A stretch of 24,000 nt of DNA from an uncultured Opitutaceae bacterium (lineage in GTDB: Bacteria > Verrucomicrobiota > Verrucomicrobiia > Opitutales > Opitutaceae): the NCBI GenBank assembly GCA_964471615.1, contig CAYYGV010000007.1:33473-57472 (forward strand), given 5' to 3'. Position 1 is the stretch's first letter, and every line of letters starts with the position of its first letter. The position numbers were made by a program, and so were the translations under genes. The notes under the pieces were generated by a model. It was given only the letters and a program-made list of their open reading frames with translations, ran no database searches and was not told the origin of the DNA. This document shows, one piece after another, positions 7,046-22,821 of this stretch.

Positions 7046-7054
7046 CAAACGACG

Positions 7055-7606
7055 ATGGAAGCCGTCCATTTCCAAAGTCTGGTCGATCAGTGGTATGACC
7101 CGCTCTACCGCTTCGCGCTGAGCCTTTCCCGGAACGGAGACAGTGCGCTCGACCTCACACAGCAGACGTTCGCCCGGTGGGCGGAAAAGGGCAGCGGCTT
7201 GCGGGACGCCTCTAAGGCGAAGTCCTGGCTTTTTACCGTCCTCTACCGGGAGTTTCTCAATACACAGCGCCGGCAACGCCGCGAGGGGCCGCCAGACTCA
7301 GAGGACTTCTTTGAGTCCGTCCCGGCGGAGGAAACCAGCTCGTCGCGGTCCGTCGATGGGCACCAGGCGATGGCCGCATTGCAGGAGATCGATGAGGTGT
7401 TCCGCGCTCCGTTGATCCTCTTTTACCTCGAAAACCATTCCTACAGGGAGATCGCTGAGATTCTCGACGTTCCCGTCGGGACCGTGATGTCCCGCATCTC
7501 GCGTGGCAAGGAACAGCTGCGCCGCAAACTGCGTGATGGCACTGCCGGCAAACCCGGCAAAATCGTTCCAATGACTCCTCCCACGAAAGGAGCGCACCAT
7601 GGATAA
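7055..7606 (+). CDS. ECF (sigma-70 family, group 4) RNA polymerase sigma factor, copy 2
   Basis: 183 aa. Region 2 reads YDPLYRFALSLSRNGDSALDLTQQTFARW...KSWLFTVLYREFLN. Region 4 reads FRAPLILFYLENHSYREIAEILDVPVGTVMSRISRGKEQLRRKL. Confidence 0.9.
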   Translation: MEAVHFQSLVDQWYDPLYRFALSLSRNGDSALDLTQQTFARWAEKGSGLRDASKAKSWLFTVLYREFLNTQRRQRREGPPDSEDFFESVPAEETSSSRSVDGHQAMAALQEIDEVFRAPLILFYLENHSYREIAEILDVPVGTVMSRISRGKEQLRRKLRDGTAGKPGKIVPMTPPTKGAHHG

Positions 7607-8351
7607 CAAACACGCCAAAATTGTCCTGAGCGTCTATCGGCCCCACGGCCAGGATGCCAATGATCCCGATTTCGCCGAAGCTTTGAAGCAGGTCGAGCGC
7701 GACCCGTCGATGGCCACATGGTTCCGGGAGCAGCAGCAATTCGATTCCGACTTCGCCGCGGCCCTGAATTCGGTCGCAGGGCCTGCGGAGGCCAAGACTA
7801 TGATCAAGGCGACAATGGGGGCGTCAGCCGGGTCGCGCCGCCGGTGGTGGCCGCTCGCGCTCGTCGCCAGCCTGGCCCTGGTATTCGCGACCTCGTGGGT
7901 ATTGTTGCGAAACCGTCCCGCTGGACTGCCGCTGCCGGAAAACGCCACGCTCGCCCAGCTCGCGACGAACCTCTCTGAGCATCATGCCTCCATCGGATTC
8001 ATGTCCGGTGATCTAGGCCGCATTCGGCAATGGCTCCTTGAACGGCGCGGTCCGGCGCCGGATGACCTGCCGGCGAAGCTGGCGGGCATGAAGATACTGG
8101 GCTGCGAAACCTGGAAGACAACCCGCGGCAAAGTCTCGCTCATTTGCTTTGTCAACGACGGCATGCAGATGGCGCACCTCTACATCTTCGAAAACGCCGC
8201 CGACTTCCCCGGCTTGCCGCCGCGCGCCGAACCGCGGCTGGCCCGCGAGGGCAATTGGTCCTTGGCGCTCTGGCAGGACGACGGCCACGCCTACGTGCTG
8301 GGTTCCCCGACAAATAGCGGCATCTCCGTCGAATCGCTCGTCCGCTCGTAA
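7599..8351 (+). CDS. Putative anti-sigma factor (single-pass membrane protein with an extracytoplasmic domain)
   Basis: 250 aa. The start overlaps the end of the sigma gene by 8 nt and is preceded by AAGGAG. The N-terminal region is MDNKHAKIVLSVYRPHGQDANDPDFAEALKQVERDPSMATWFREQQQFD. One TM helix (WWPLALVASLALVFATSWVLL) is followed by a C-terminal domain of about 140 aa. Confidence 0.75.
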   Translation: MDNKHAKIVLSVYRPHGQDANDPDFAEALKQVERDPSMATWFREQQQFDSDFAAALNSVAGPAEAKTMIKATMGASAGSRRRWWPLALVASLALVFATSWVLLRNRPAGLPLPENATLAQLATNLSEHHASIGFMSGDLGRIRQWLLERRGPAPDDLPAKLAGMKILGCETWKTTRGKVSLICFVNDGMQMAHLYIFENAADFPGLPPRAEPRLAREGNWSLALWQDDGHAYVLGSPTNSGISVESLVRS

Positions 8352-8371
8352 TTCAAAATCTCATTCCGATC

Positions 8372-9526
8372 ATGATCGCTGAAACCGCTGTTCGCGAACG
8401 TTACAGTGGCGCCGCCCGTCAGGCGGAAGCCGCCCTGTGCTGTCCCGTCAACTATGACCCCAAATACCTGAAGGTCATCCCCGCCGAAGTAATCGAGCGT
8501 GACTACGGTTGCGGCGACCCTTCCCGCTGGGTGCGGGAAGGAGACACCGTGCTCGATCTCGGATCAGGCACGGGCAAAATCTGCTTTATCGCCGCCCAAG
8601 TCGTCGGTTCCAAGGGCCGCGTGATCGGCGTGGACATGACCGACGACATGCTTGAGGTCGCGCGGCGCAACGCACCAATCGTGGCTGAGCGCATCGGCTA
8701 CGCCAACGTCGAGTTTCGCAAGGGTCGCATCCAGGACATGGGCCTCGACCTAGCCCTGTTTGACCGGCACCTCCGTGAATGCCCGCTCGCCGGCGCCGAA
8801 GGCTGGTTGGAGGCGGAGCGCCTAGCGGATGATCTCCGGCGAAATCATCCCCTCGTGGCCGACCAGAGCGTGGACGTGGTCGTCTCCAACTGCGTGCTCA
8901 ACCTGGTGGACTCCGCGACCAAGCCGCGCTTGTTTCAGGAAATCCACCGCGTGCTCCGGCTCGGCGGCCGGGCGGTCATCTCCGACATCGTAAGCGACGA
9001 GGTGGTGCCCGAGCGGCTGCAGCGCGATCCCGAACTATGGAGCGGCTGCATTTCGGGGGCGCTGACGGAAATAGGATTCATCGAGGCGTTCGAGCGCGCC
9101 GGCTTCTACGGCATCGAGGTCGTCAAGCGCGACGAACAGCCGTGGCGCACGGTGGAAGGCATCGAATTCCGGTCTGTCACGATCCGCGCCTACAAGGGCA
9201 AGGAGGGGCCGTGCTTCGAACGCAATCAGGCGGTGATCTACAAAGGGCCGTTCAAAGAAGTCCTCGACGATGATGGCCACCGTTTGAAGCGCGGGGTGCG
9301 TCACGCGGTATGCGACAAAACCTTTCAGCTCTATCGAAAGGAACCGTATCGCGGGCATTTCGATTTCGTCGAGCCCCACACGGCGATTCCTCCGGAGAAC
9401 GCGCAGGCGTTCGATTGTCGGCGCGCGGCGCCACGGCATCCCCGCGAAACCAAGGGGCAGGACTACAAGATAACCACTGATGCGTCCGTGTGCTGCGATG
9501 GCGGCAACGGTGGCGCCTGCTGCTGA
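8372..9526 (+). CDS. arsM: Arsenite S-adenosylmethionine methyltransferase (ArsM-like)
   Basis: 384 aa. The SAM motif I is VLDLGSGTGKICF. Conserved cysteine contexts of ArsM-type enzymes are present: ALCCPVNYD, DYGCGDP, VVSNCVLNLV, WSGCISGA. It also has RVLRLGGRAVISDI and ends in a cysteine cluster, SVCCDGGNGGACC. It starts 20 nt after the anti-sigma stop. Confidence 0.85.
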   Translation: MIAETAVRERYSGAARQAEAALCCPVNYDPKYLKVIPAEVIERDYGCGDPSRWVREGDTVLDLGSGTGKICFIAAQVVGSKGRVIGVDMTDDMLEVARRNAPIVAERIGYANVEFRKGRIQDMGLDLALFDRHLRECPLAGAEGWLEAERLADDLRRNHPLVADQSVDVVVSNCVLNLVDSATKPRLFQEIHRVLRLGGRAVISDIVSDEVVPERLQRDPELWSGCISGALTEIGFIEAFERAGFYGIEVVKRDEQPWRTVEGIEFRSVTIRAYKGKEGPCFERNQAVIYKGPFKEVLDDDGHRLKRGVRHAVCDKTFQLYRKEPYRGHFDFVEPHTAIPPENAQAFDCRRAAPRHPRETKGQDYKITTDASVCCDGGNGGACC

Positions 9527-10629
9527 TGATCGCGATCCTCGTCATCGTCGCGACGCTGGCCGTCGGATACTTCAACGGCGCCAACGACGTCTCCAAGGCC
9601 ATCGCCACCCTCGTCGGGAGCGGGGTGACCCAGTATCGCACGGCGGTGCTGTGGGGTAGCATCTGGACATTCGCCGGCGCCGCCACCGCGGCCGTCGCGG
9701 CACAAGGCCTCGTCGCGGCGTTCAGCGGCAAAGGCCTTTTGGCGACGACCCCGGAAGGATTCGGTTTGATTCTGGCGGTTGCCGTTGGCGCGCTCGCATG
9801 GATATGGCTGGCCACCCGAACCGGGATGCCCGTTTCGACGACCCATGCCATTACCGGCGGTTTGATCGGAGCGGGGCTGGTCGCCGCTGGTGCCGGAGGT
9901 ATTCACTGGCATTTCCTGCTCGAAAAGTTCGCGCTTCCCCTGGCGGCGAGCCCGTTCATGTCGCTGCTGCTGGTGTTTGCCATATTCCCGGTGGCCCGGT
10001 GGGGACTCCGGCGCTGGGACGGTTACTGCGTTTGCGTCCAGCAGCCCGCCCCGGTCGTATGCGGCGAGGGCACGGCGGTTGCGATGAGCACGACGGAGAG
10101 TATCGTCGTGGACAAAACCGCAGCCTGCGAGCGGTCGCCCGTGACGGTAGCCGGTGTTACCGTGGTCGATGGGCTGCACTGGTTCAGCGCCGGAGCCACG
10201 GCGTTCGCCCGGGGACTGAATGATGCGCCCAAGGTGCTTGGCTTGGGTGTGCTCGCGGGCGCGAGCCTGAGCCTGCCGCTCACATGGTCGTTCCTACTGG
10301 TGGCGTTGGTGATGGCCGCTGGCAGCGTGCTGCGCGGCCTCAGAGTAACCGAGACGCTGGCAGAGAAGGTGACGCCGATGAGTCCGATGGAGGGATTTGT
10401 CGCCAACTTGGTGACGTCCATCCTGGTGATATTTGCTTCCCGGATGGCCCTGCCGGTCTCGACCACCCATGTGAGCAGCGGTGCCATCATCGGTCTCGGA
10501 CTGAGGCGGGATGCCCGTCAGGTTCGCTGGCGCACCGTCGCCGAGATGATTCTGGCCTGGATAGTCACCCTGCCCGGCGCCGGGGCGATTGCGGCTGCCA
10601 CCTATTTCCTGATCGGAGGCCGGGTATGA
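9526..10629 (+). CDS. PiT-family (PHO4) inorganic anion transporter, putative phosphate/arsenate permease
   Basis: The ATG at 9526 shares one base with the arsM stop (TGATG) and gives MIAILVIVATLAVGYFNGANDVSKAIATLVGSG. The two PiT half-repeats are GANDVSKA and GLNDAPKV, and VSTTH occurs twice. A Cys-containing central loop reads CVCVQQPAPVVCGEG...AACE. 367 aa. Confidence 0.8.
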   Translation: MIAILVIVATLAVGYFNGANDVSKAIATLVGSGVTQYRTAVLWGSIWTFAGAATAAVAAQGLVAAFSGKGLLATTPEGFGLILAVAVGALAWIWLATRTGMPVSTTHAITGGLIGAGLVAAGAGGIHWHFLLEKFALPLAASPFMSLLLVFAIFPVARWGLRRWDGYCVCVQQPAPVVCGEGTAVAMSTTESIVVDKTAACERSPVTVAGVTVVDGLHWFSAGATAFARGLNDAPKVLGLGVLAGASLSLPLTWSFLLVALVMAAGSVLRGLRVTETLAEKVTPMSPMEGFVANLVTSILVIFASRMALPVSTTHVSSGAIIGLGLRRDARQVRWRTVAEMILAWIVTLPGAGAIAAATYFLIGGRV

Positions 10630-11606
10630 ACGATTTCATTGCCACCCTGCACCGCCACAATCTCGCATTGCGCCGCGTGCATCCTCGCGTGCTGCAAATC
10701 AACGTGGGGAAGCTCTGCAACCTGACATGCATGCACTGCCATGTGAACGCCGGTCCCGGCCGTAAGGAAGTCATGGCACGGGAAACGGTGGACCGCATCC
10801 TCTCTTGGGAGGAAAAGGCGCGTTTGCCGGTCATCGATCTGACCGGCGGGGCGCCGGAAATGATTCCGGACTTTCGCTATCTCGTGCAGCAGCTGCGCGC
10901 GTTGCCCGCGGTCGAAAAGATCATCGATCGCTGCAATCTCACCATCCTGCTCCAGCCCGGCTACGGGGATCTGGTGGAGTTTCTGGCGAAGCACCGGGTC
11001 GAGATCGTCGCGTCGATGCCGTGCTACTCGCCGGAAAACGTGAATGCGCAGCGGGGCGAAGGCGTTTTCGACGCCAGCATCGAAGCCTTGCGGCAGCTCA
11101 ACGCCATCGGCTACGGCATCAATCCCGACCTGCCGCTGCACCTCGTCTTCAATCCCAACGGGGCCAAGCTCCCGGGGCTGCAGGAGGAACTCGAAGCGGA
11201 CTACAAGCGGGAGCTGCATTCGCATTTTGGCATCGTCTTTAATCGACTCTATACCATCACCAACCTGCCCGTCGCCCGCTTCGCCTCCTGGCTGCGACAC
11301 AACGGCAAATACGAGGAGTATCTCGCGTTGCTGACTCGGTCCTTCAACCCGGCGACCGTCGATGGCCTAATGTGCCGTGAGACAATTAACGTAAGCTGGC
11401 AGGGCGAGGTATTTGACTGCGACTTCAATCAGATGATGAAGATGCCGATGGCCGGAACCCAGGGGCGTTATCTCTGGGATCTCGATCCTTCGGCCCTTGA
11501 AGGCGCACCCATTGCCACGGCCGCGCATTGCTTCGGTTGCACCGCCGGCGCCGGCTCCAGTTGCGGCGGCGCCATCGAGAAGGTCGCCGAACCTGTGTCG
11601 GCCTGA
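10626..11606 (+). CDS. arsS: Radical SAM / Cys-rich-domain protein, ArsS-like (arsenosugar biosynthesis)
   Basis: The ATG at 10626 overlaps the PiT stop (ATGA); 326 aa. The radical SAM cluster motif is GKLCNLTCMHCHV. The C-terminal Cys-rich tail is CRETINVSWQGEVFDCDFN...AAHCFGCTAGAGSSCGG, as I remember for the TIGR04167/ArsS family. The tail codon is Cys (TGC), not an in-frame TGA. Confidence 0.85.
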   Translation: MNDFIATLHRHNLALRRVHPRVLQINVGKLCNLTCMHCHVNAGPGRKEVMARETVDRILSWEEKARLPVIDLTGGAPEMIPDFRYLVQQLRALPAVEKIIDRCNLTILLQPGYGDLVEFLAKHRVEIVASMPCYSPENVNAQRGEGVFDASIEALRQLNAIGYGINPDLPLHLVFNPNGAKLPGLQEELEADYKRELHSHFGIVFNRLYTITNLPVARFASWLRHNGKYEEYLALLTRSFNPATVDGLMCRETINVSWQGEVFDCDFNQMMKMPMAGTQGRYLWDLDPSALEGAPIATAAHCFGCTAGAGSSCGGAIEKVAEPVSA

Positions 11607-11626
11607 AACCGGACGCATCCAAACTC

Positions 11627-12433
11627 ATGACAATTCTGCGAAAGGTTCTGACCGCCATTTGTTTTCTCGCCGTCGAGGTGATGGCTTCCGCCGCCACGGT
11701 CGACGTTCCGGCCGGGATTGATCCGGCGCCGTGGGACGCCCTGCTGAAGAAATACGTGAACGACCGGGGACTCGTCGCCTACCAGGCATGGAAAGCGGAC
11801 GCCGCCGACCTGAGAAAGCTCGATGACTTCATCGCGGCCTACGCCAGAGCCGGCGGCGCGCCGGCGGCCGGCGCCGAGCAGATTGCGGCGCTGATCAACG
11901 CCTACAACGCGTTCACGATCCGCTGGATTCTCCAGAACTATCCGACGGAGAGCATTCGTGAGCTGGACGATTCGTGGACCAAGGCGCGTTGGACGATTGG
12001 CGGTCGCGTCGTCTCGCTCGATGAAATCGAGAACAAGAACCTGCGCCCTCTTTATAGCTGGAAGGTTCATGCGACGATCGTTTGCGCGGCCCGAAGCTGC
12101 CCGCCCTTGCAGGCGGAGGCCTACACCGCCGCCAATCTGGAGGCGCTGACGGAGCGCGCCTATCGCGCTTGGCTCGCCCGCAACGATCTCAACCAGTTCG
12201 ATGAGGCGGCCGGGGTCGCGCGCGTTTCGCCCATCTTCAAATGGTTCAAATCCGATTTTACGGGCGACGGCGAACTGGCGGCCGTGCTGGAAAGACTCGC
12301 CCCGACCCGGGACCGCGTGTTCCTGGTGGGTCGAAACTACAAGGTCGACTACCTCGACTACCGCTGGGGCCTCAATGACCAGAGCGGTCGGGGAACGGAC
12401 TACAGCCCCAGCCTCTTCAAACGTCTGTTTTGA
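11627..12433 (+). CDS. DUF547 domain protein with signal peptide
   Basis: The internal ATG at 11627 gives MTILRKVLTAICFLAVEVMASAA; 268 aa. DUF547 hallmarks are AALINAYNAFTI, VSLDEIEN..LR, HATIVCAARSCPPL and SPIFKWFKSDF. Confidence 0.8.
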   Translation: MTILRKVLTAICFLAVEVMASAATVDVPAGIDPAPWDALLKKYVNDRGLVAYQAWKADAADLRKLDDFIAAYARAGGAPAAGAEQIAALINAYNAFTIRWILQNYPTESIRELDDSWTKARWTIGGRVVSLDEIENKNLRPLYSWKVHATIVCAARSCPPLQAEAYTAANLEALTERAYRAWLARNDLNQFDEAAGVARVSPIFKWFKSDFTGDGELAAVLERLAPTRDRVFLVGRNYKVDYLDYRWGLNDQSGRGTDYSPSLFKRLF

Positions 12434-12453
12434 GTGCCGAGGAAGTGGTATCC

Positions 12454-13092
12454 ATGACGACGCTGGTAATGGTCTTTCTCAAGGCACCCCGTCCGGGCAC
12501 GGTGAAGACGCGGCTGGGGCGGGACATTGGGCATCCGCGAGCGACGGCCATGTATCGGGCGCTTGCCGAGCAACAGCTGGACCGGATCCCCGCAGAGTTC
12601 CGCACCGAAATCCACTATGCACCGCGCGGTGCTCGCATGGAAATGCGCCAATGGCTCGGCCGTCGGCATCTCTTTCGAGCGCAGAACGGCCGCGATCTCG
12701 GGGAGCGAATGAGCCGGGCCTTTGTCCAGGGATTCCTTCGCGGTTTCAAGCGGATCATCGCCATCGGGTCGGATTGCCCCGAACTCGATCAAGATTGCTT
12801 GCGTCGGGCGGACGCGGAACTTCGTCGCGCCGATGTGGTGCTAGGTCCGGCGACCGACGGGGGATACTACCTAATCGGGTTGCGCCGGCCCCAACCAGCC
12901 TTGTTCAAGGACATTGCGTGGAGCACAGAAACAGTGCTGGCGGAAACCCTGGTCCGTATCCGGGGAAACGAGCTCACTCATCGGCTGCTCGAAGAGAAGG
13001 AGGACATCGACGATCTGGCCGGTTGGCAGCGGCATCAGGCAAAGAACTCGGCGCGGCTTGCCCCAGCCGTGACTTCCGTCGTCCCCGTTTGA
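12454..13092 (+). CDS. DUF2064 / TIGR04282-like transferase (the family NCBI names as an arsenosugar-biosynthesis glycosyltransferase)
   Basis: The ATG at 12454 is preceded by GAGGAAG; 212 aa. Family hallmarks are LVMVFLKAPRPGTVKTRL, IIAIGSDCPELD, DVVLGPATDGGYYLIGLRRP and LFKDIAWSTETVLAETL. The family name is recalled from memory. Confidence 0.75.
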   Translation: MTTLVMVFLKAPRPGTVKTRLGRDIGHPRATAMYRALAEQQLDRIPAEFRTEIHYAPRGARMEMRQWLGRRHLFRAQNGRDLGERMSRAFVQGFLRGFKRIIAIGSDCPELDQDCLRRADAELRRADVVLGPATDGGYYLIGLRRPQPALFKDIAWSTETVLAETLVRIRGNELTHRLLEEKEDIDDLAGWQRHQAKNSARLAPAVTSVVPV

Positions 13093-13096
13093 AATC

Positions 13097-13573
13097 ATGG
13101 ATGCCGCCACTGCGATGCGACGCTCCCAAAGTGATCGCGCCTCATTGCCCGTTGTGGGTTATCTGGCGTCGCTGGACGCCCGCAGGACCGTTCTGTGGAG
13201 CGCATTTCTCTGGTATCTGGCCATGGCGGTCCGCTACGGCGAATTCGAGCCGTCCGTCTGGCAGCACTCCATTGGAATCGCGGTGGTTGTGGGTGTGATT
13301 CTGACTCTCAATGCCGCTCCGCCCCAGGGGCGCGTCCGTGACCTCGGGTTCTGGCCGGTGCTGCGCTTCTTTCTCATTCCCTTTTGCGTCGCGAGTTTCT
13401 CCGCCTTTGCCCGAGGACGCGCCTTCGTGCTCATTTTTCCAGCCAAGGCGGCGGAGAACGTTGTCGCGGGCGGCCTGATCGCATTGTTCTGCCTGCTGGT
13501 CTGGCTGGCGAAGCGCGGCCGGGCAGGCCGCGCTCCCTTACCAACCTCCACCGCGAATCCCGGCTCCCCATGA
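13097..13573 (+). CDS. Hypothetical integral membrane protein (about 4 TM)
   Basis: 158 aa. It starts 4 nt after the upstream stop. Hydrophobic helices are VLWSAFLWYLAMAV, IGIAVVVGVILTL, FWPVLRFFLIPFCVASFSAF and VVAGGLIALFCLLVWL. I recognise no family. Confidence 0.55.
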   Translation: MDAATAMRRSQSDRASLPVVGYLASLDARRTVLWSAFLWYLAMAVRYGEFEPSVWQHSIGIAVVVGVILTLNAAPPQGRVRDLGFWPVLRFFLIPFCVASFSAFARGRAFVLIFPAKAAENVVAGGLIALFCLLVWLAKRGRAGRAPLPTSTANPGSP

Positions 13574-14157
13574 AATCGCTGCTCAATCGCCTTCGCCGTC
13601 CCGGCCGCTCTTCCGCCGGCGTCTTCTTGCTCTTTATCGGCGCCTGGCTCGCGGTCGCGGCCCGCGCCGAGACGCCCAAAGTCGGCGAACTCGCGCCGAA
13701 CTTCACGCTGCGCACGCTCGACGATCAGTCCATCGAGTTGGCCCAGCTCGCCGCGGAGCACCCGGTTTTGCTGATCGTGCTGCGCGGTTGGCCGGGTTAC
13801 CAGTGCCCGATTTGCGCGCGGCAGGTGCATGATTTCGTAAGCCACGCAGCGGAATTCGTGAAACGGGATGTGCAGATTCTCATGGTTTATCCCGGTCCGG
13901 CCGAACAATTGAAAACCCATGCGCGCGAGTTTCTGGAGGACAAGCAGTGGCCGCGGAAATTCTTCTTCGTGATCGATCCTGATTTCGCCTTCACGAACGC
14001 TTACGGCCTGCGTTGGTCGGCACCCAGGGAAACGGCTTCCCCGTCGACCTTCCTGATCAACCAGGAGAGGCGGGTCCAGTTCGCCCACGTCAGCGAATCG
14101 CATGGCGATCGCGTCGGCGCGACCGCGGCGCTGGCCGCGATTGACGCGACGCGTTGA
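13570..14157 (+). CDS. Exported thioredoxin-fold protein, AhpC/TSA (peroxiredoxin-like) family with a CxxC motif
   Basis: The ATG at 13570 overlaps the upstream stop (ATGA); 195 aa. The signal/anchor segment is SSAGVFLLFIGAWLAVAARA. It then reads GELAPNFTLRTLDDQSIELAQL..HPVLLIVLRGWPGYQCPICARQV and STFLINQERRVQFAHV. Confidence 0.7.
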   Translation: MKSLLNRLRRPGRSSAGVFLLFIGAWLAVAARAETPKVGELAPNFTLRTLDDQSIELAQLAAEHPVLLIVLRGWPGYQCPICARQVHDFVSHAAEFVKRDVQILMVYPGPAEQLKTHAREFLEDKQWPRKFFFVIDPDFAFTNAYGLRWSAPRETASPSTFLINQERRVQFAHVSESHGDRVGATAALAAIDATR

Positions 14158-14190: not shown

Positions 14191-15648
14191 TCAGGCCTGA
14201 ACCACCGCAACCCCCGCGCTGTCGATGGCCGGCAGTCGAAACTGAAAGCACGCTCCTTCGCCGGTCGCGGAGGCCAGGATCTCCAATGAGCCGCCGTGGG
14301 CTTCGACAAAGCGCTTGCACAGGGAGAGTCCGAGGCCGGTGCCGTCGGACTTGGTGGTGACAAAGGAATCGAAGATTCGCTCGCGCAGTTCAGCGGGGAC
14401 GCCGGGTCCGTTGTCCCGCACCGATACGGCCACCCAGATTCCGTCGGTGAAGGCGCGCACCGAAATGCGCCGCGCTCCCGGCTGGGACGCGAGCGCCTGG
14501 GCCGCATTGCGCACGAGATTGATGAACACCTGCTCGATCTGTTGGGCGTCCATCATGACTTGCGGGAGTTCCGTCGAAATGGATGCCTCGAAAACAACCC
14601 CGGCTTGCCGCAGTTCGGCGGCGATGAGTTCCTCCGCTTTTCGCAACACTTCGGCCAGCGATCCCGGCACACGCTGCACAGGATGATTGCGGGCAAAGTC
14701 GAGGAGGTTGCGCACGATCGAGGCTACGCGCCTGGTTTGCTGGGAGATGATGGCACCGGCCTTTTTCGTATCGTTGGCGTGGCCCTGCGCCAGAAGTTCC
14801 GAGTAGCCGCTGATCGCGGCGAGCGGGTTGTTGATCTCATGGGCGATGCCGGCCATCAGTTCGCCCAGCAGGTGCATCTTTTCCCCCTGCAAGAGCCGCT
14901 CATGGGCGGTCTGCAATTCCTCCAGCGCACGGCGCAGTTCCGCGGTGCGCTCTCGCACCCGGATCTCCAGCATGGCGTTCTTTTCGGCCAGCTCGGCCTC
15001 AAAGCGCGCACCCAGGGAGCGGGCGAGTCCTACGCCGATCACGGAGATCAGCAGCAATGTGGGGATCGCGGTGCCGAAGAGCTTCCAGCGCAGGGCGGCG
15101 AACTCCCGGGCGATGGCCGCGGTATTCTTGTGGACGGCGATGGTCCAGGGTTCCCGCTCCACCGGCTGATAATAGACCAGCTGCGGCGGCTCGTCGGCCT
15201 CGTGTTGCGTGCCCGCCGCCGGACGGCCGCTGAGCAGCACGCTCGAGATGGGCCGCGATTGATCCGAACCGAGGGGCGTCATGTCCATCTCGCCCCAGCG
15301 CATGCCGATCATGGCGGGGTCGGGATGACTGAGCACCCGGCCGTCCTTGTCGAGCAGGCAGAGGAAATCCGCCTGCGAGCCGGAGCCGCGGAGGACGTTT
15401 TGGACGCGACCGATGGTCTGATTCGGGGTGGCCCCCTCGGAGAGGTCGCGGTCCACGAACCGCGCAATAATCGCGGCCTCGCGCCCGGCGGCCTGCACTT
15501 GATTCGCCAGCAACTGCCGTTCAACCCGCTGCAGCACAATGAAGCTGCCGGTCAGTCCGACGGCAAGGACGGCCAGCGACACCAGCAGCAGCGTAACCGC
15601 GAAGCGACGAACCGCCCCTCTTCGCACGATCTGGAATTTCAGGGGCAT
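14191..15648 (-). CDS. Sensor histidine kinase with a periplasmic Cache-like domain (no response regulator in the window)
   Basis: The start is placed at ATG 15648 (MPLKFQIVRRGAVRRFAVTLLLVSLAVLAVGL...); 485 aa. The H-box is HEINNPLAAISGYSELL, the N-box FINLVRNAAQAL, G1 VRDNGPGVP and G2 GTGLGLSL. The loop between the two TM helices contains DFLCLLDKDGRVLSHPDPAMIG...YYQPVEREPWTIAVH. The longer track ORF (to 15774) would swallow motif P6. Confidence 0.85.
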   Translation of the reverse strand: MPLKFQIVRRGAVRRFAVTLLLVSLAVLAVGLTGSFIVLQRVERQLLANQVQAAGREAAIIARFVDRDLSEGATPNQTIGRVQNVLRGSGSQADFLCLLDKDGRVLSHPDPAMIGMRWGEMDMTPLGSDQSRPISSVLLSGRPAAGTQHEADEPPQLVYYQPVEREPWTIAVHKNTAAIAREFAALRWKLFGTAIPTLLLISVIGVGLARSLGARFEAELAEKNAMLEIRVRERTAELRRALEELQTAHERLLQGEKMHLLGELMAGIAHEINNPLAAISGYSELLAQGHANDTKKAGAIISQQTRRVASIVRNLLDFARNHPVQRVPGSLAEVLRKAEELIAAELRQAGVVFEASISTELPQVMMDAQQIEQVFINLVRNAAQALASQPGARRISVRAFTDGIWVAVSVRDNGPGVPAELRERIFDSFVTTKSDGTGLGLSLCKRFVEAHGGSLEILASATGEGACFQFRLPAIDSAGVAVVQA

Positions 15649-16860: not shown

Positions 16861-17229
16861 TTATTGCCCGCTGCTTGCCGTGGGCGAAACCTCGACGACA
16901 CAGTTGCACCAGCCCCAGGGGTTCGGTTTGTAAGCGCAGGCGTGGGGATCGTCGCTCCAGACGCCATCAGCGATGAAGCGGTATTCGTGGTGCCCGGGAG
17001 CGAGAGGCAAACGTAAGCGCCAGTTTCCCTCGGCATCGCGCTGCATGAGCAGGCTCTCGGGATTCCAATCGTTGAAACTGCCGGCGAGAAAGACCTGCCG
17101 GGCGTTGGGAGCGTGATAACAGAATTCGGTTTCCGGAGGCGGACCTCCTTCGGCTGGAGCGGGCTTGGCCTTGCGCGGCCGGTGGCGGTGAGAGCGCGCC
17201 GCACCGGCGGGCGCAAGTTGGTCGTTCAT
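16861..17229 (-). CDS. Stand-alone CBM48 / AMPK-beta glycogen-binding-domain-like (E-set) protein
   Basis: 122 aa. FCYHAPNARQVFLAGSFNDWNPESLLMQRDAEGNWRLRLPLAPGHHEYRFIADGVWSDDPHA is the classic CBM48 / isoamylase N-terminal pattern. The N-terminal 35 aa are basic and Pro-rich. Confidence 0.75.
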   Translation of the reverse strand: MNDQLAPAGAARSHRHRPRKAKPAPAEGGPPPETEFCYHAPNARQVFLAGSFNDWNPESLLMQRDAEGNWRLRLPLAPGHHEYRFIADGVWSDDPHACAYKPNPWGWCNCVVEVSPTASSGQ

Positions 17230-17237
17230 GCCATTGA

Positions 17238-17272: not shown

Positions 17273-17821
17273 TCAGCCGGCTGAAGCGCCGGCCGGTTTT
17301 CCGGATGGCGATCGGCCGATTTCCTGGAGGTGCGCGCCGGATTTGGAGGCCGCCGCCAGCTCGCGTTTGACCGCGGAGGTGACGTTGGCCATGCAACAGG
17401 AGCCTTGCGGATTGCGAATTTCGCAGGCGCAGCGATCCGCCTTCATTTCGGCCGCGATGCGCTGCGGGATCGTGCAACCGCCGGTAGCCGCGATTTCCTC
17501 CCGCACCATCGCCGTGTCGAAGCCGAAGCAATAACACAACCGGGGATTGGCGTGGTTCTTCACCGTCGGCACCTGTCGCACGTCGTCCAAGGTCAGGGTC
17601 TTGCCGGCCGCGTTGAAATAAACCACCGGGCATTCGGGTGAGCGGCAGAAGGCAAACGGGCCGGACTCGACAGCCGTCAGGTGGGCCGGCTTCACCTGAT
17701 GCTTCAGAGTGAGCAGCGAGACGGTTTTGCCGGGCTGACTGCATCGCGGGCAAGGTGCGGGGGTCGAAGCGCGAGGCGGCACAGGAACGGTTGCGGGAGA
17801 GGGAGAGCAACAATCAGACAT
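17273..17821 (-). CDS. Cys-rich metallochaperone-like protein resembling the CopZ N-terminal Zn/[2Fe-2S] domain
   Basis: The internal ATG at 17821 gives MSDCCSPSP...; 182 aa. CPRCSQPGKTVSLLTLKH......FAFCRSPECPVVYFN is followed by RLCYCFGFDTAMVREEIAATGGCTIPQRIAAEMKADRCACEIRNPQGSCC. This matches my memory of the Cys pattern of the archaeal CopZ N-terminal domain and the bacterial 'putative iron-sulfur cluster-binding metallochaperone' proteins. It starts 8 nt after the merT::HMA stop. Confidence 0.65.
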   Translation of the reverse strand: MSDCCSPSPATVPVPPRASTPAPCPRCSQPGKTVSLLTLKHQVKPAHLTAVESGPFAFCRSPECPVVYFNAAGKTLTLDDVRQVPTVKNHANPRLCYCFGFDTAMVREEIAATGGCTIPQRIAAEMKADRCACEIRNPQGSCCMANVTSAVKRELAAASKSGAHLQEIGRSPSGKPAGASAG

Positions 17822-17829
17822 CGTTGGGA

Positions 17830-18417
17830 TTAGTTGATGGTGGAGCGGTCGGCCGGGAAGCCGCTGGCGTCGATGAGCGCGAGCAGTTTCTCGCGGCTGG
17901 TAATCGACGGATCGTAAACCAGAACCGCTTCCTTGGAACCATAGTCCACTGCCGCCTGCTTCACGCCCGGGGCGTGGCGAAGGGAAGCCTCGATGCCCGC
18001 CGCGCACGGTGGGCAATCCATCGACGGGATGAGCACGGTGAGCCTGGCGTCACTGGCGGCGACCGTCGCCACGTTGATCCTGTGATTCGCGACAGGCAGC
18101 GACGGATAGATGGCCGCCGCGAGTGCCACCATCGTGCCCAGCCAGAGCCCGATGCGCGCGGCTTTGCCAGGCGGCCGGGCGCAGGAGCCGTCCTCGCAGC
18201 CCGCTTTCGGCCGGCGGTAGGTGAGAAACCAAGCCAGCCCGAGAAACACGAGCGTCGCGCCGAGCAGGACTGGCCGCCACGTGGCGAACCACGCCGACGC
18301 GGCGAAGCTGCCGAGCCCGAGGCTGAGCGACAGCAGAGGCCCGATGCAGCACACGGAGGCGGCAATGCCGGCGACGACACCGCCGGCGAGAGTCCAGGAG
18401 CAACCGGGCTTTTTCAT
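17830..18417 (-). CDS. merT: MerT-like mercuric ion transporter fused to a C-terminal heavy-metal-associated (MerP-like) domain
   Basis: 195 aa. TM1 carries the vicinal cysteine pair (AGIAASVCCIGPLLSLSLG). The loop cysteine pair is GCEDGSC. The C-terminal HMA fold reads ARLTVLIPSMDCPPCAAGIEASLRHAPGVKQAAVDYGSKEAVLVYD. Its metal site is MDCPPC rather than the canonical GMTCxxC. Confidence 0.8.
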   Translation of the reverse strand: MKKPGCSWTLAGGVVAGIAASVCCIGPLLSLSLGLGSFAASAWFATWRPVLLGATLVFLGLAWFLTYRRPKAGCEDGSCARPPGKAARIGLWLGTMVALAAAIYPSLPVANHRINVATVAASDARLTVLIPSMDCPPCAAGIEASLRHAPGVKQAAVDYGSKEAVLVYDPSITSREKLLALIDASGFPADRSTIN

Positions 18418-18423
18418 GGCGGG

Positions 18424-18455
18424 AGGCTACACCCTGTAGTATGGTATAAGGTCAA
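18424..18455. promoter_or_regulatory. Divergent merR / merT promoter-operator region
   Basis: The minus strand has TTGACC (18455-18450), a 20-nt spacer and TAGCCT (18429-18424). That over-long spacer is typical of MerR-family promoters and puts the transcription start at about the merT ATG (18417). Dyads in or overlapping the spacer are a perfect CTACA-N3-TGTAG (18427-18439) and an imperfect 8-6-8 ACCTTATA/TACAGGGT (18431-18452). The plus strand has an extended -10-like TGGTATAAG (18442-18450) upstream of merR. Confidence 0.45.
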
Positions 18456-18465
18456 GAAACCGCTC

Positions 18466-18858
18466 ATGACTATAGGAGAACTTGCCCGCCGCGCCGGAGT
18501 AAACGCGCAGACCGTCCGCTACTACGAGCGTGAGGGCCTGCTGCCCGAGCCTCATCGTTGGCCGGATTCGGGCTATCGCGATTTCGACGACGAGGCGGTC
18601 CAACGCCTGCGGTTCATCCGCTCCGCCAAAGACCTCGGGTTCACGCTCCGGGAGATCAAGGACCTGCTCGAAATGCGCGTCCTGCCGGGGGAGTCGTGCG
18701 CTGAGGTCCGCCATCTGATCGGTGCCAAGCTCGCCGATCTCGACCGGCGGGTGAAGGAAATGCGCCGGTTGCGCCGGGCGTTGGTCAAAATGGACGAGGC
18801 GTGCCGACGGCGCGCCGACCCCCGAAGCTGTCCAGCGCTGTGGGCGCTCGAACGGTAA
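18466..18858 (+). CDS. merR: MerR-family Hg(II)-type metalloregulator
   Basis: The internal ATG at 18466; 130 aa. The HTH is MTIGELARRAGVNAQTVRYYEREGLLPEP. The three cysteines are placed as in Tn501 MerR (from memory): GESCAEV, then C-x8-C in EACRRRADPRSCPAL (compare CHARKGNVSCP). The 367-aa track ORF is an artefactual upstream extension antisense to merT. Confidence 0.85.
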   Translation: MTIGELARRAGVNAQTVRYYEREGLLPEPHRWPDSGYRDFDDEAVQRLRFIRSAKDLGFTLREIKDLLEMRVLPGESCAEVRHLIGAKLADLDRRVKEMRRLRRALVKMDEACRRRADPRSCPALWALER

Positions 18859-19782: not shown

Positions 19783-20292
19783 TCAGAGCAGCGGTTTGAT
19801 GGCGCGCTCGAACTCCTCCTTCTCGGTGTAGCCAACATGCGTGGCGACGAGTCGTCCGTGACGATCGACGATGAACGTCGAGGGCACGGCCTCGATGCCG
19901 CCAAAGGCCCGGGCAACGGCCTCGTCGCCCATCACGACCGGGTAGTTCATGCCGAACCGCCGCATGAATTCCCTAACCGGTCCGGTGCCGCCCTGGTCCA
20001 GCGAAACCCCGACAACGACCAGACCCCGGTCGCCGTAGGCCTTCTGCAGTTCGACGAACCCGGGAATTTCCGCCCGGCAGGGTGGGCACCACGTGGCCCA
20101 GAAATCGAGGATCACCACTTTGCCGGCATACTGGCTGGACGAAACTGTCCGGCCATCCAGATCCTTCAGCTCCCAGGCAGGGGCCGGGCTGGCGGTCTGT
20201 GCCGGACTGTCGTTGGAAGGATTTGCGCGGGCGAAAAGGGCGATGGCGGCGATGGCCGCACCGGCAAGAAGGAATGAGGCGTATTTCCACAT
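19783..20292 (-). CDS. TlpA-family periplasmic thiol:disulfide oxidoreductase
   Basis: The internal ATG at 20292 gives MWKYASFLLAGAAIAAIALFARA (signal/anchor); 169 aa. GKVVILDFWATWCPPCRAEIPGF and VVGVSLD are thioredoxin-fold TlpA/ResA hallmarks. The 397-aa track ORF is an artefactual extension antisense to the GT2 gene. Confidence 0.85.
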   Translation of the reverse strand: MWKYASFLLAGAAIAAIALFARANPSNDSPAQTASPAPAWELKDLDGRTVSSSQYAGKVVILDFWATWCPPCRAEIPGFVELQKAYGDRGLVVVGVSLDQGGTGPVREFMRRFGMNYPVVMGDEAVARAFGGIEAVPSTFIVDRHGRLVATHVGYTEKEEFERAIKPLL

Positions 20293-20302
20293 AATGTGTT
20301 TC

Positions 20303-20359: not shown

Positions 20360-20385
20360 GGGAATTTATACAGCCGATGGGCGTC
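20360..20385 (+). promoter_or_regulatory. ECF-type promoter motif P3 (GGGAAT-N16-CGTC) upstream of the GT2 gene
   Basis: The sequence is gggaat ttatacagccgatggg cgtc acaac. The GT2 ATG (20408) lies 26 nt after the first base of CGTC. A weaker upstream copy, GGAAT (20334-20338)-N16-CGAA, sits back-to-back with the -35 element of P4 and creates the ATTCCC-GGCG-GGGAAT inverted repeat at 20323-20338. Confidence 0.55.
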
Positions 20386-20407: not shown

Positions 20408-21160
20408 ATGGCATCCGTTAACGACCGTTCCCATCCTCCTGTGACCTGTGTGTCCGTCATTGTGCCGACGTGGAACGAGGAACGGGGCCTGGCAGAGTGC
20501 CTGCGGTCGGTCGGGGCTGATCGACCCGGCGTGGAGGTGATTGTTGTCGATAGCGGCAGCACGGATCGCACTGCGGAAATCGCGGCTGGCTTTGGTGTGC
20601 GCCTGATCGCCTCTCCACTCAGGCAGCGTGCCGCGCAGCTCGACTTGGGGGTGCAGTCGGCTCGCGGCGAGGTTCTGCTTTTTCTGCATGCCGATACGTT
20701 GCTGCCCCGTGGCTGGGATGAGGCGCTTCGGCGGATGCTCGATGCCGATCCCGACACCCTTGGTGGCGCGTTTCGGCGGCGGTTCGACCATCCCTCCCTG
20801 TGGCTGCGCTGCACCTGCGCGCTGGCCGATTGGCGCGGCCGGATCTGGGGCTGTTTTCTTGGCGACCAGGCCATGTTCATCCGCACGGCGACGTTCTGGT
20901 CGCTGGGCGGTTTCCGGCCCCTCGATCGGTGCGAGGACCTCGACCTGTCGCTGCGGATGGCCCGGGCGGGGCGCACGCGAATGGTTGCCTCGCCGGTGGT
21001 GTCCTCCGGCCGGCGATTCCTGGCGCGCGGTCCATTTCGTCAGACCTGGGTGGATTTCGCGACCGCCTGGCGGTTTATCCGCCACCAGCCCGCCGCGGTA
21101 GTTCCCGTGGCGTCTCCTCCGGTTTCGGCGCCGCGCCACGAGTCCGCGCCCGTGGCGTGA
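20408..21160 (+). CDS. Family-2 glycosyltransferase, TIGR04283-like (partner family of TIGR04282 in ArsS-type clusters)
   Basis: 250 aa. VSVIVPTWNEERGLAECLRSV, VEVIVVDSGSTDRTAEIA, LLFLHADTLLP and CEDLDLSLRM form a GT-A fold with a DxD-like motif. The family assignment is from memory of TIGRFAM naming. Confidence 0.75.
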   Translation: MASVNDRSHPPVTCVSVIVPTWNEERGLAECLRSVGADRPGVEVIVVDSGSTDRTAEIAAGFGVRLIASPLRQRAAQLDLGVQSARGEVLLFLHADTLLPRGWDEALRRMLDADPDTLGGAFRRRFDHPSLWLRCTCALADWRGRIWGCFLGDQAMFIRTATFWSLGGFRPLDRCEDLDLSLRMARAGRTRMVASPVVSSGRRFLARGPFRQTWVDFATAWRFIRHQPAAVVPVASPPVSAPRHESAPVA

Positions 21161-21183: not shown

Positions 21184-21954
21184 ATGATTGGCTACCTCGT
21201 TGGTTCAGGATTCTACGATCAACCCGGCTTCGCACCCTCGGAGGTCGAGACCCGCCACGGTCGCGTTACGGTCTGGCGCGGTCAGGTCGGCGGACCGGTC
21301 GCGCTTATCTCCCGGCATGGCGCGGGACACGCGCGTCTTTCCCACCAGGTCAACCACCGGGCGAATCTGCTTGCGTTGAAACAGCTGGGGGCGAGCGCCG
21401 TGGTCTCGTGTTCCGTCTGCGGTGTCGTTCGGAACGATTGGCCCATCGGCGGACCATTGCTGGCGTCGGAAATGTATTTTCCGTCCAACCGGCTGCCCGG
21501 CGGCGAACTCTGCACCGTATTTGACCAGCCCGGCGAAACGGGCCGGGGCCATCTGATCGCCGGCTCCTTGATCGATGGCGCTCTGAGTGCCGCAATCGAG
21601 CAGGTCTGGCGCCGTCAGGGCTTGGCTCCGCAGATCGGCACCTACGGGCATGTGGACGGACCGCGTCTCAACACCAAATCGGAAATCAAGGCCCTGCGCG
21701 CCGCCGGCGTCGACTTCATCTCCCAAACCTGCGGTCCGGAGGCGGTCCTGGCCAACGAGCTGGAACTGCCCTACGCGCTCGCGGCTTTTGGCGTCGATCA
21801 TGCCAACGGCGTGGTGACGCCGCCGACTCCGTCGGAAGTGCTCAAAAACAATCTGACCGCCGCCACGCAGGCCTTTAGATCGTTGATCGAAGCGCTGGCC
21901 GAGCCGGCGGGAGGATTCCAGTTCGCCAATTTCGTCTACCGCTTCGGACCCTGA
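21184..21954 (+). CDS. MTAP-family (PNP/UDP_1 fold) nucleoside phosphorylase
   Basis: The internal ATG at 21184; 256 aa. MIGYLVGSGFY, ALISRHGAGHARLSHQVNHRANLLALKQLGASAVVSCSVCG, YGHVDGPRLNTKSEIKALRAAGVDFISQTCGPEAVLANELELPYA and DHANG match the methylthioadenosine phosphorylase family pattern. Confidence 0.8.
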   Translation: MIGYLVGSGFYDQPGFAPSEVETRHGRVTVWRGQVGGPVALISRHGAGHARLSHQVNHRANLLALKQLGASAVVSCSVCGVVRNDWPIGGPLLASEMYFPSNRLPGGELCTVFDQPGETGRGHLIAGSLIDGALSAAIEQVWRRQGLAPQIGTYGHVDGPRLNTKSEIKALRAAGVDFISQTCGPEAVLANELELPYALAAFGVDHANGVVTPPTPSEVLKNNLTAATQAFRSLIEALAEPAGGFQFANFVYRFGP

Positions 21955-22033: not shown

Positions 22034-22117
22034 ATGCACAGGAAATTGCTCCACTCCAACCCAAGTTCTGCGGCCGCAAGTCAACTGCGCTCTTTTCCGG
22101 CAAGATTGATTTCATGA
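22034..22117 (+). CDS. Possible 27-aa upstream ORF translationally coupled to the TVP38 gene
   Basis: My own translation gives MHRKLLHSNPSSAAASQLRSFPARLIS. The ATG sits at the predicted leaderless position of P2. The stop overlaps the TVP38 ATG (ATGA at 22114-22117). There is no family support, so this is speculative. Confidence 0.25.
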   Translation: MHRKLLHSNPSSAAASQLRSFPARLIS

Positions 22118-22821
22118 CACAGAGAGCAAACCCAGAGGCCCGGCCGGCATCGCCCCTGAAGTGGCTGCTCTATGCCGGCGTGGCGGCCGGCCTGATCGTC
22201 GCCGCCAGGCTTCTGCATGCGCAGGAGCTGCTCCAACAAGCTCTCGCCTGGGTGGCGCAGCTCGGGCCTTGGGGACCGGTCATTTTCGTCGCGCTCTATG
22301 TTGTCGCGACCGTGCTCTTCATCCCCGGATCGGTTCTGACTCTCGGCGCAGGCGCCGTCTTCGGTGTCGTGTGGGGTTCGGTCTACGTGTCCGTTGCCTC
22401 AACACTTGGCGCGACGTGTGCCTTTCTCGTCGGGCGGTATCTCGCACGCAACGCTGTTGCCCGAAAAATCGAGGGCAACGAACCCTTCGCCGCGATAGAC
22501 AGGGCCGTGGCAAACGAGGGCTGGAAGATCGTTGGCCTGACCCGGCTCTCGCCGGTCTTCCCCTTCACCTTGTTGAACTATGCGTTCGGCCTGACGAGGG
22601 TATCGCTTCGCGCCTACGTGCTCGCTTCGTGGATCGGCATGATGCCGGGCACGGTGATGTATGTCTATCTGGGGTCGCTGGCGAAAGCGGCATCGGGAGA
22701 ACGAATCCGCACTCCTGGCGAGTGGGCGCTCTATGTCGTCGGTCTCGTCGCCACCGTGGCCGTCACGGTGTTTGTCACGCGCATCGCGAAGCGGGCCTTG
22801 GCGGAAAAGATCACCTCCTGA
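22114..22821 (+). CDS. TVP38/TMEM64 (DedA-related, SNARE-associated) family membrane protein
   Basis: 235 aa. LGPWGPVIFVALYVVATVLFIPGSVLTLGAGAVFGVVWGSVYVSVASTLGATCAFLVGRYLAR and RLSPVFPFTLLNYAFGLT are family hallmarks. Confidence 0.85.
   Translation: MTQRANPEARPASPLKWLLYAGVAAGLIVAARLLHAQELLQQALAWVAQLGPWGPVIFVALYVVATVLFIPGSVLTLGAGAVFGVVWGSVYVSVASTLGATCAFLVGRYLARNAVARKIEGNEPFAAIDRAVANEGWKIVGLTRLSPVFPFTLLNYAFGLTRVSLRAYVLASWIGMMPGTVMYVYLGSLAKAASGERIRTPGEWALYVVGLVATVAVTVFVTRIAKRALAEKITS

Follow-up and report, generated by a model that had tools for sequence, protein, structure and literature searches.

A probable arsenosugar-type organoarsenical biosynthesis cluster, with a PiT-family permease and apparent extracytoplasmic function sigma control, in an Opitutales-like verrucomicrobium

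Arsenosugars and arsenolipids account for a large share of the arsenic in seafood, yet ever since their discovery in algae it has been an open question how the product of ArsS is converted into them. ArsM forms dimethylarsenite, and ArsS forms DDMAA (5'-deoxy-5'-dimethylarsinoyl-adenosine), from which adenine "can then be removed" (bioRxiv 10.64898/2026.04.29.721666; PMC12159101). Among the closest known systems is the cyanobacterial arsM-arsS pair of Synechocystis sp. PCC 6803 (SsArsM/SsArsS; Xue et al. 2019 and Cheng et al. 2021, cited in PMC8552651 and PMC12159101), in which ArsM adjoins a protein with TIGR04167 and DUF3641 domains. Members of the TIGR04167 family are often selenoproteins (PMC13188914). 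Here we describe an extended arsM-arsS locus in a stretch of 24,000 nucleotides ("the window") from an uncultured Opitutaceae bacterium (contig CAYYGV010000007.1, positions 33,473 to 57,472). As in Synechocystis, ArsM adjoins a TIGR04167 plus DUF3641 protein, and the same chemistry would be expected, that is, dimethylarsenite and a 5'-deoxyadenosyl group giving DDMAA (PMC8552651, PMC12159101). We consider that the locus is probably an arsenosugar-type organoarsenical biosynthesis cluster of a soil-type, Opitutales-like verrucomicrobium, organised as a regulon of an extracytoplasmic function (ECF) sigma factor. Throughout, we infer the function of every gene of the cluster from its sequence relationships.

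The central operon block occupies positions 7055-14157 of the whole window, on the plus strand, and all nine genes have an ATG start:

7055-7606, plus strand: ECF sigma factor, 183 aa
7599-8351, plus strand: anti-sigma factor, 250 aa
8372-9526, plus strand: arsM, As(III) S-adenosylmethionine (SAM) methyltransferase type, 384 aa, with a Cys-rich C-terminus
9526-10629, plus strand: PiT-family anion permease, 367 aa
10626-11606, plus strand: arsS, radical SAM enzyme, 326 aa
11627-12433, plus strand: DUF547 protein, exported, 268 aa
12454-13092, plus strand: TIGR04282/DUF2064 protein, nucleotide-diphospho-sugar-transferase-like, 212 aa
13097-13573, plus strand: small membrane protein with 3-4 transmembrane (TM) segments, here called the 4-TM protein, 158 aa
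13570-14157, plus strand: redoxin, exported, thioredoxin fold, 195 aa

The initial annotation, made from the sequence alone, had described nine same-strand genes with tiny or negative gaps, and the junctions measure, just as it listed them, -8, +20, -1 (TGATG), -4 (ATGA), +20, +20, +4 and -4 (ATGA) nt. The GC content at third codon positions was 0.70-0.79 in the nine frames, the excess expected of real genes in a genome of 62-64% GC. Terminator-like hairpins inside the block were at chance level (7, against 7.8 expected from shuffles). A sigma-70 promoter search gave no promoter-like sites and is uninformative on internal transcription signals, and an Rfam scan of the window found neither riboswitches nor RNA genes. 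The gene that follows, for a histidine kinase, is convergent with the operon and ends 33 nt past the last operon stop codon. In a related genome (locus L085; the loci of relatives are given L numbers below) the order arsM-PiT-arsS-DUF547-TIGR04282-...-4TM-...-redoxin is kept, with protein identities of 57-88%. The family calls of the annotation held in hidden Markov model scans, with TIGR04167, TIGR04282, PF04784 and PF01384 all matched. It had also called the architecture unusual: the layout itself is confirmed, but it is not unique to the window, being one version of a widespread cluster.

ArsS matched TIGR04167 at 432 bits (cut-off 300) over model positions 2-303 of 303; its C-terminal DUF3641 domain (PF12345) scored 183.6 bits, and the tail CFGCTAGAGSSCGG was read from the translation. 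The CX3CX2C radical SAM motif is CNLTCMHC, at residues ~34-41, and the enzyme of the window is the Cys form, not the selenocysteine (Sec) form. For ArsM the best match was NF040538, the arsinothricin-type ArsM (346 bits, under the cut-off of 500); NF008823 gave 204 bits (cut-off 263) and NF038099, the cyanobacterial arsenosugar ArsM, 131 bits (cut-off 400). The protein aligned to the solved CmArsM (4fr0/4kw7, E = 1.5e-36), a class I methyltransferase fold. It keeps three of the conserved ArsM cysteines, in YGCG, SNCV and GC(I/L)xGAL, and has a CC pair near its N-terminus.

To compare the locus with its relatives, we took the 80 best ArsS matches among the GTDB species genomes and compared their loci by tblastn and clustering of open reading frames. 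Nearly all matches were from Verrucomicrobiota, the top one being a Didemnitutus metagenome-assembled genome with 77% identity. From these matches the host is verrucomicrobial (Opitutales-like), in agreement with the non-cyanobacterial context first proposed. A same-strand arsM gene was found near arsS in 45 of the 80 loci. TIGR04283, a glycosyltransferase family that in the window lies outside the operon, was near arsS in 23-27 loci, DUF547 in 16, TIGR04282 in 13-16, PiT in 13, a TVP38 gene in 11-14, and a sigma/anti-sigma pair in 7-10. Within 10 kb of arsS, the 80 verrucomicrobial loci practically lacked genes for the redoxin and for the 4-TM protein. A different recurrent architecture was seen in loci of the Udaeobacter type (L025, L027, L028, L040, L042, L045, L052 and L071), where genes for a fatty-acid-hydroxylase-family protein and a transglutaminase-like protein precede arsS, and TIGR04283 is divergent, often without a nearby arsM.

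The permease matched PF01384 at 235.7 bits (gathering threshold 33.7) over positions 1-350 of 350, and missed the equivalog models of the sulfate permease CysP (72 bits, cut-off 400) and of PitA (54 bits, cut-off 800). Its place between arsM and arsS, with overlapping codons, had been singled out as unusual. The order arsM-PiT-arsS was found in the 13 loci of the survey that have PiT, where the permease is ~40% identical. We also sampled six more distant homologues (53-60% identity), picked only for their long contigs, and all six directly follow ArsM or a radical SAM-ArsM fusion. Their neighbourhoods also hold ArsS, DUF2064, VTT, DUF547, GT2, thioredoxins or an ECF pair. The named organisms among the six belong to Limisphaerales, and other matches of like identity come from Thermoanaerobaculia or Acidobacteriota. 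This permease clade is tightly linked to ArsM across phyla. Because PiT occurs in 13 of the 80 loci and directly after ArsM in 6/6 distant homologues, it is, judged by its neighbourhoods, a core partner of ArsM and not a chance insertion.

Other transporters adjoin arsS in related loci. A channel of the major intrinsic protein (MIP) family lies immediately upstream of arsS in about eight loci, two of which carry both MIP and PiT, and pstSCAB is located between arsM and arsS in five loci and abuts arsS in four more. As(V) enters cells by phosphate transporters and As(III) by aquaglyceroporins (PMC9582695). The function common to PiT, MIP and pstSCAB would be, we infer, the entry of inorganic arsenic or phosphate.

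The fusions next to the distant PiT homologues, of 823-833 aa, were found directly upstream of the permease in L093 (3539-6010), L094 (3521-6001), L095 (3498-5999) and L098 (4487-6988). Their assignment as ArsS-ArsM was rejected, as they have no listed DUF3641 domain and share just 27-28% identity with ArsS over the radical SAM core; they may be a different C-As bond-forming enzyme.

A second locus of the window holds further genes, candidates for the later steps among them:

19738-19169, minus strand: AhpD-like peroxidase-related protein
~20292-19783, minus strand: TlpA-like exported thioredoxin
20408-21160, plus strand: TIGR04283 glycosyltransferase of the GT2 family (198 bits, cut-off 182)
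~21184-21954, plus strand: phosphorylase resembling methylthioadenosine phosphorylase (MTAP-like)
22114-22821, plus strand: TVP38/DedA-type membrane protein
22845 to the window end (24000), plus strand: pyridine nucleotide-disulfide oxidoreductase (PNDR), MerA-like

The MTAP-like protein belongs to the PNP_UDP_1 fold family; it scored 116 bits with TIGR01694, under the cut-off of 275, and matched solved methylthioadenosine phosphorylases in the PDB at E = 1e-21. We regard it as a sibling of MTAP that has diverged, and it is a candidate for the removal of adenine from the ArsS product. The gene follows TIGR04283 in L086 and L087, and in a distant genome it comes directly after arsS, in the order [LPG_synthase_TM + TIGR04283]-TIGR04282-VTT-arsS-MTAP (L091). 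A sigma/anti-sigma operon of L083 continues, after DUF547-TIGR04282, with an APH-family kinase gene (2984-4033), for which the top NCBIfam model was S-methyl-5-thioribose (MTR) kinase (93 bits, cut-off 275). This MTR-kinase-like gene may do in two steps what the MTAP-like phosphorylase would do in the window. In L020, L023, L032, L048 and L050, arsM comes after the PNDR-TVP38 pair. TIGR04283 is fused to polytopic membrane domains in two relatives, GT87/MptA_B-like in L085 (6191-8209) and LPG_synthase_TM in L091 (5632-7290), and the L085 operon holds an OlsE-like lipid hydroxylase; the fusions and the hydroxylase hint at a lipid-linked product.

Within the operon, the DUF547 protein matched PF04784 at 64.4 bits and has 2506 homologues, of which 41 of the 43 sampled carry a signal-peptide-like N-terminus. 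Its invariant motif is H...VCAARSCPP (CX4C), and its AlphaFold2 model has a pLDDT of 91.5. The TIGR04282 protein, whose family NCBI names arsenosugar biosynthesis glycosyltransferase, scored 194 bits (cut-off 134) and matched PDB 3cgx at E = 1e-34. The redoxin scored 76.8 bits with PF08534 and 71.9 bits with AhpC-TSA, and missed all NCBIfam equivalogs, including the SelL-related redox protein (53 bits, cut-off 120). Its active site, CPIC (CxxC), is thiol-disulfide oxidoreductase-like, and its orthologue in L085 is 64% identical. Redoxin (residues 13-34) and TlpA both have N-terminal hydrophobic segments, which together with the signal-peptide-like N-termini of DUF547 agree with the proposal of a set of exported thiol-redox proteins.

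The 4-TM protein had no Pfam or NCBIfam match. It has 22 homologues (48-99% identity), all unannotated or named Opitutaceae, with the invariant motif LGFWPxxRFFLIPFCVxSFS, so the family-less protein noticed in the operon is a real conserved gene. Its synteny is kept in L085 and L083/L084, not in L082, where it sits among sulfatases. The L085 operon is expanded to arsM-PiT-arsS-DUF547-TIGR04282-GT2-[GT87-like + TIGR04283]-4TM-FA_hydroxylase-redoxin, and in L083/L084 the 4-TM neighbourhood is headed by sigma-antisigma-DUF547-TIGR04282 with the MTR-kinase-like gene. Both the 4-TM protein and the redoxin are confined to close relatives, as additions specific to this lineage, and they are therefore weaker candidates for core steps than DUF547, TIGR04282, TIGR04283, the MTAP-like protein and TVP38. 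The initial annotation had proposed the co-transcribed unknowns as candidates for the later steps; of these, the redoxin and the 4-TM protein rank below DUF547 and TIGR04282.

The operon is headed by a sigma gene with Sigma70_r2 and Sigma70_r4_2 domains (TIGR02937 at 69.3 bits, cut-off 42.9), overlapped by 8 nt by an anti-sigma membrane gene, the arrangement of an ECF pair. The sole family match of the anti-sigma factor was DUF3379, at 28.6 bits (gathering score 33.2). Its C-terminal domain is periplasmic, and it has a single TM segment, at residues 83-104; an alignment of 10 orthologues showed invariant GC...C, HL, W and Y positions, with two invariant Cys in the periplasmic domain.

The window holds five exact copies of GGAAT-N16-CGTC where 0.40 would be expected, a number that none of 100 shuffles attained. 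Each copy lies between genes and points the right way, with a start codon 9-60 nt downstream; a sixth copy has one mismatch:

7021-7045, plus strand: GGAATAAAGTGCGAGGCTCCCCGTC, precedes sigma, ends 9 nt before its ATG
15725-15701, minus strand: precedes the histidine kinase gene
17262-17238, minus strand: precedes a gene for a CBM48-like protein
20327-20303, minus strand: precedes tlpA
20361-20385, plus strand: precedes TIGR04283
22000-22024: one-mismatch copy, upstream of TVP38

The regions upstream of sigma orthologues have GGAATA, ~16 nt and C(G/T)TC in common. Orthologous copies of the motif were found before sigma in L083 and before the kinase and CMD genes in L085; the CBM48 unit has counterparts of both motif and genes in L085 and L083, and L087 has a divergent motif pair before tlpA and TIGR04283. 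Similar copies stand ahead of arsM (L020, L033, L043, L048), of arsS (L004, L058, L066), of sigma (L063) and of the PNDR gene (L020, L063). Over all loci, a loose pattern occurred 29 times against ~12 expected and a strict pattern 42 times against ~15. The link of the sigma/anti-sigma pair to the cluster, which had been suggested from its position, is backed by its recurrence in relatives and by the shared motif. Because GGAAT-N16-CGTC stands before both loci, the operon and the second locus form one probable ECF regulon.

Two other patterns were discarded. A first promoter guess upstream of sigma, GGAAC...CGTC, has a 25-nt spacer, and GGAAT-N16-CGTC was preferred; the loose form GGAAT-N15-18-CKTCY was too degenerate, with 62 matches in 1.2 Mb, mostly intragenic. 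For sigma, the CBM48 gene and tlpA (7046-7057, 17229-17237 and 20292-20302), the end of the CGTC element is only 7-10 nt away from the ATG, so their transcripts would have hardly any leader or none.

The route that we propose would begin with the membrane anti-sigma factor sensing a periplasmic signal and freeing the sigma factor; the signal may be thiol-reactive trivalent arsenic, because of the two invariant periplasmic Cys. The freed sigma factor would drive its own operon and the satellite units (the histidine kinase, CBM48-AhpD-like, tlpA-ahpD and TIGR04283-MTAP units). PiT would import arsenate along with phosphate, As(V) would be reduced by an enzyme encoded outside the window, and ArsM would then methylate As(III) to dimethylarsenite. 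ArsS would attach the 5'-deoxyadenosyl group of SAM to give DDMAA, an analogue of methylthioadenosine, which the MTAP-like enzyme could phosphorolyse, taking adenine off to leave 5-arseno-ribose 1-phosphate. The MTR-kinase-like enzyme of L083 could reach the same 5-substituted ribose 1-phosphate. TIGR04282, with its nucleotidyl-transferase-like fold, would activate the sugar phosphate, TIGR04283 would transfer the activated sugar to a membrane or glycerol-type acceptor, and TVP38/DedA would translocate the lipid-linked product or its carrier. A role in the periplasm, either on the product itself or in shielding thiols there, would fall to the exported DUF547 together with the redoxin, TlpA and the AhpD-like proteins. 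The comparative data strengthened in silico, and did not overturn, the functional reading of the initial annotation.

A bolder form of this proposal takes the ArsM-linked PiT clade as a dedicated arsenate importer, with MIP and Pst as its counterparts, and thus arsenic uptake as deliberate; the product as a membrane-anchored arsenosugar lipid made by way of the MTAP-like protein, TIGR04282, TIGR04283 and TVP38; and the anti-sigma cysteines as sensors of As(III). We regard it as rather unlikely that all of this holds.

The following points weigh against the proposed arsenosugar pathway. On its scores, ArsM is nearest to the arsinothricin-type model and passes none of the NCBIfam equivalog cut-offs. 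The arsenate reductase gene arsC was looked for in the window and not found, and the route from arsenate import to methylation is therefore incomplete here. No MTAP-like gene was found within 10 kb of arsS at any of the 80 verrucomicrobial loci. The MIP channels score closer to aquaporin Z than to aquaglyceroporins, which weakens for them the argument of an equivalent slot. A Foldseek search with the DUF547 model returned no solved structural relative, so the role given to DUF547 is a guess. It was these same sequences that supplied the motif, post hoc, its cognate sigma factor being assigned from the copy before its own gene, and the cognate sigma might conceivably come instead from a second ECF pair of the window (1128-2590, minus strand); GGAAT-N16-CGTC was not found upstream of that sigma gene (2021-2590). 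Finally, we know of no arsenosugar reported from Verrucomicrobiota.

The alternatives have to be weighed with the surroundings of the cluster in view:

2021-2590, minus strand: second ECF sigma factor, overlapping a DUF5667 anti-sigma-like gene (1128-2024)
3379-3837, plus strand: ArsR-family regulator
14191-15648, minus strand: sensor histidine kinase (HisKA + HATPase_c)
16227-15784, minus strand: 147-aa orphan
16774-16196, minus strand: AhpD/CMD-like protein (TIGR01926 at 63 bits)
17229-16861, minus strand: CBM48-like protein, 122 aa (AMPK1_CBM + CBM_48)
within 17273-18858: 2Fe-2S metallochaperone resembling the CopZ N-terminal domain (NF047645 at 135 bits)
17830-18417, minus strand: MerTP fusion
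~18466-18858, plus strand: MerR regulator, divergent

A DUF302 gene is also located upstream of the operon. At the start of the window, an open reading frame (18-422, plus strand) looks like the C-terminal end of a heavy-metal P-type ATPase, but the fragment had no Pfam match. The ArsR gene is followed by one for an MtrA-like protein of 387 aa with Cys-rich ends (region 3379-4997, plus strand; NF002128, tetrahydromethanopterin S-methyltransferase subunit A, at 488 bits, cut-off 568), which is presumably corrinoid-binding. A 145-aa open reading frame (6320-6757, plus strand) covers only positions 75-190 of Cation_efflux, and may therefore be a truncated cation diffusion facilitator (CDF) gene. 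The CBM48-like protein consists of little besides its glycogen-binding module, lies directly behind an ECF motif, and has orthologues in L083 and L085. The CopZ-like/MerTP/MerR trio, a mercury-type module, is also found near the cluster in L083/L084.

The alternative that survives best, to which we give a minor though appreciable probability, is that the operon serves detoxification only: an arsenic-stress operon would end in a harmless methylated or adenosylated arsenical, with PiT or Pst sustaining the phosphate supply against competing arsenate, and not feeding arsenic in, and the exported thiol proteins repairing As(III) damage to periplasmic thiols. The window is a metal-resistance island (P-type ATPase, DUF302, ArsR, CDF fragment, MerTP, CopZ-like protein, MerR), ECF control is typical of envelope-stress responses, and pstSCAB, which adjoins arsS in relatives, is of the bona fide phosphate importer type; the result for arsC in the window points the same way. 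However, a dead-end route would need none of the two glycosyltransferase-like genes, the MTAP-like gene, TVP38 and DUF547, all kept alongside arsS, and the PiT clade is specific to ArsM across phyla and stands outside general phosphate regulons.

It is improbable, in our view, that PiT carries another anion, either exporting or re-importing a methylated oxyanion such as dimethylarsinate, or moving sulfate or selenate for an ArsS-family system that acts on selenium or another metalloid. CysP is the best NCBIfam match of PiT, ahead of PitA, yet both scores are far under their cut-offs; TIGR04167 members are often selenoproteins (PMC13188914), but the ArsS of the window is the Cys form. The best NCBIfam match of the redoxin is also a SelL-related redox protein, while ArsM retains its As(III)-binding cysteines and the pstSCAB system beside arsS in relatives imports phosphate-like anions. 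Incidental packing of resistance-island neighbours without a common pathway or regulation is very improbable and already contradicted by the comparative data, for although the redoxin and 4-TM genes are absent from most of the 80 loci and one 4-TM homologue lies among sulfatases, stop and start codons overlap at four junctions, the gene order is kept in L085, the genes co-occur over 80 loci and in other phyla, and the motif is shared.

If the arsenosugar-type pathway is the right reading, the locus and its relatives offer a short testable list for the steps after ArsS: the MTAP-like or MTR-kinase-like enzyme, TIGR04282, TIGR04283, TVP38/DedA and DUF547. Two features were unexpected, a transporter clade bound to ArsM across phyla and ECF control with a recognisable promoter. 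Together they suggest that uptake of arsenic is an integral part of the pathway and no accident, and that complex organoarsenicals may be made, so far unnoticed, by the abundant Verrucomicrobiota of soils.

No account of the extended cluster came up in literature searches on TIGR04282, TIGR04283, DUF547, DDMAA and gene clusters for arsenosugars. It is not a new kind of system, because NCBI already names TIGR04167, TIGR04282 and TIGR04283 arsenosugar biosynthesis proteins. Several of its parts appear undescribed in the literature searched: the ArsM-bound PiT clade, with MIP or pstSCAB adjoining arsS in other relatives; the ECF regulon with its recognisable promoter; the MTAP-like and MTR-kinase-like alternatives; and the exported DUF547 and thiol-redox set. 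As far as we found, the same literature also leaves TVP38-PNDR and the ECF sigma/anti-sigma pair undescribed as conserved partners of the ArsS set.

Compared with the cyanobacterial arsM-arsS pair, the host of the window is verrucomicrobial, its ArsM falls outside the AsSugarArsM clade (131 bits against the cut-off of 400), and the locus has a PiT insert, a nine-gene operon headed by the ECF pair and exported thiol-redox proteins. The rSAM/selenodomain-associated set of NCBIfam/TIGRFAMs (TIGR04167, TIGR04282 and TIGR04283) is complete in the window, each member being over its cut-off, and co-occurs in relatives. Here, in contrast, it is split over two loci ~7 kb apart (~6.2 kb from the operon end to the TIGR04283 promoter motif) that are joined by the motif, and ArsS is the Cys form instead of the Sec form. 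The arsinothricin operon arsQML of Burkholderia gladioli (PMC8552651) likewise combines ArsM, a C-As-forming radical SAM enzyme and a permease. It differs in that ArsL transfers a 3-amino-3-carboxypropyl group whereas ArsS would transfer 5'-deoxyadenosyl, and in that its permease is the GntP-type exporter ArsQ, whereas the window has PiT and adds glycosyltransferase-like genes. Arsenic islands such as aio-pst/pho carry pst or pit phosphate transport genes beside arsenic genes, as the window does, but here the transporter stands between arsM and arsS, with overlapping codons, and belongs to a clade found specifically after ArsM.

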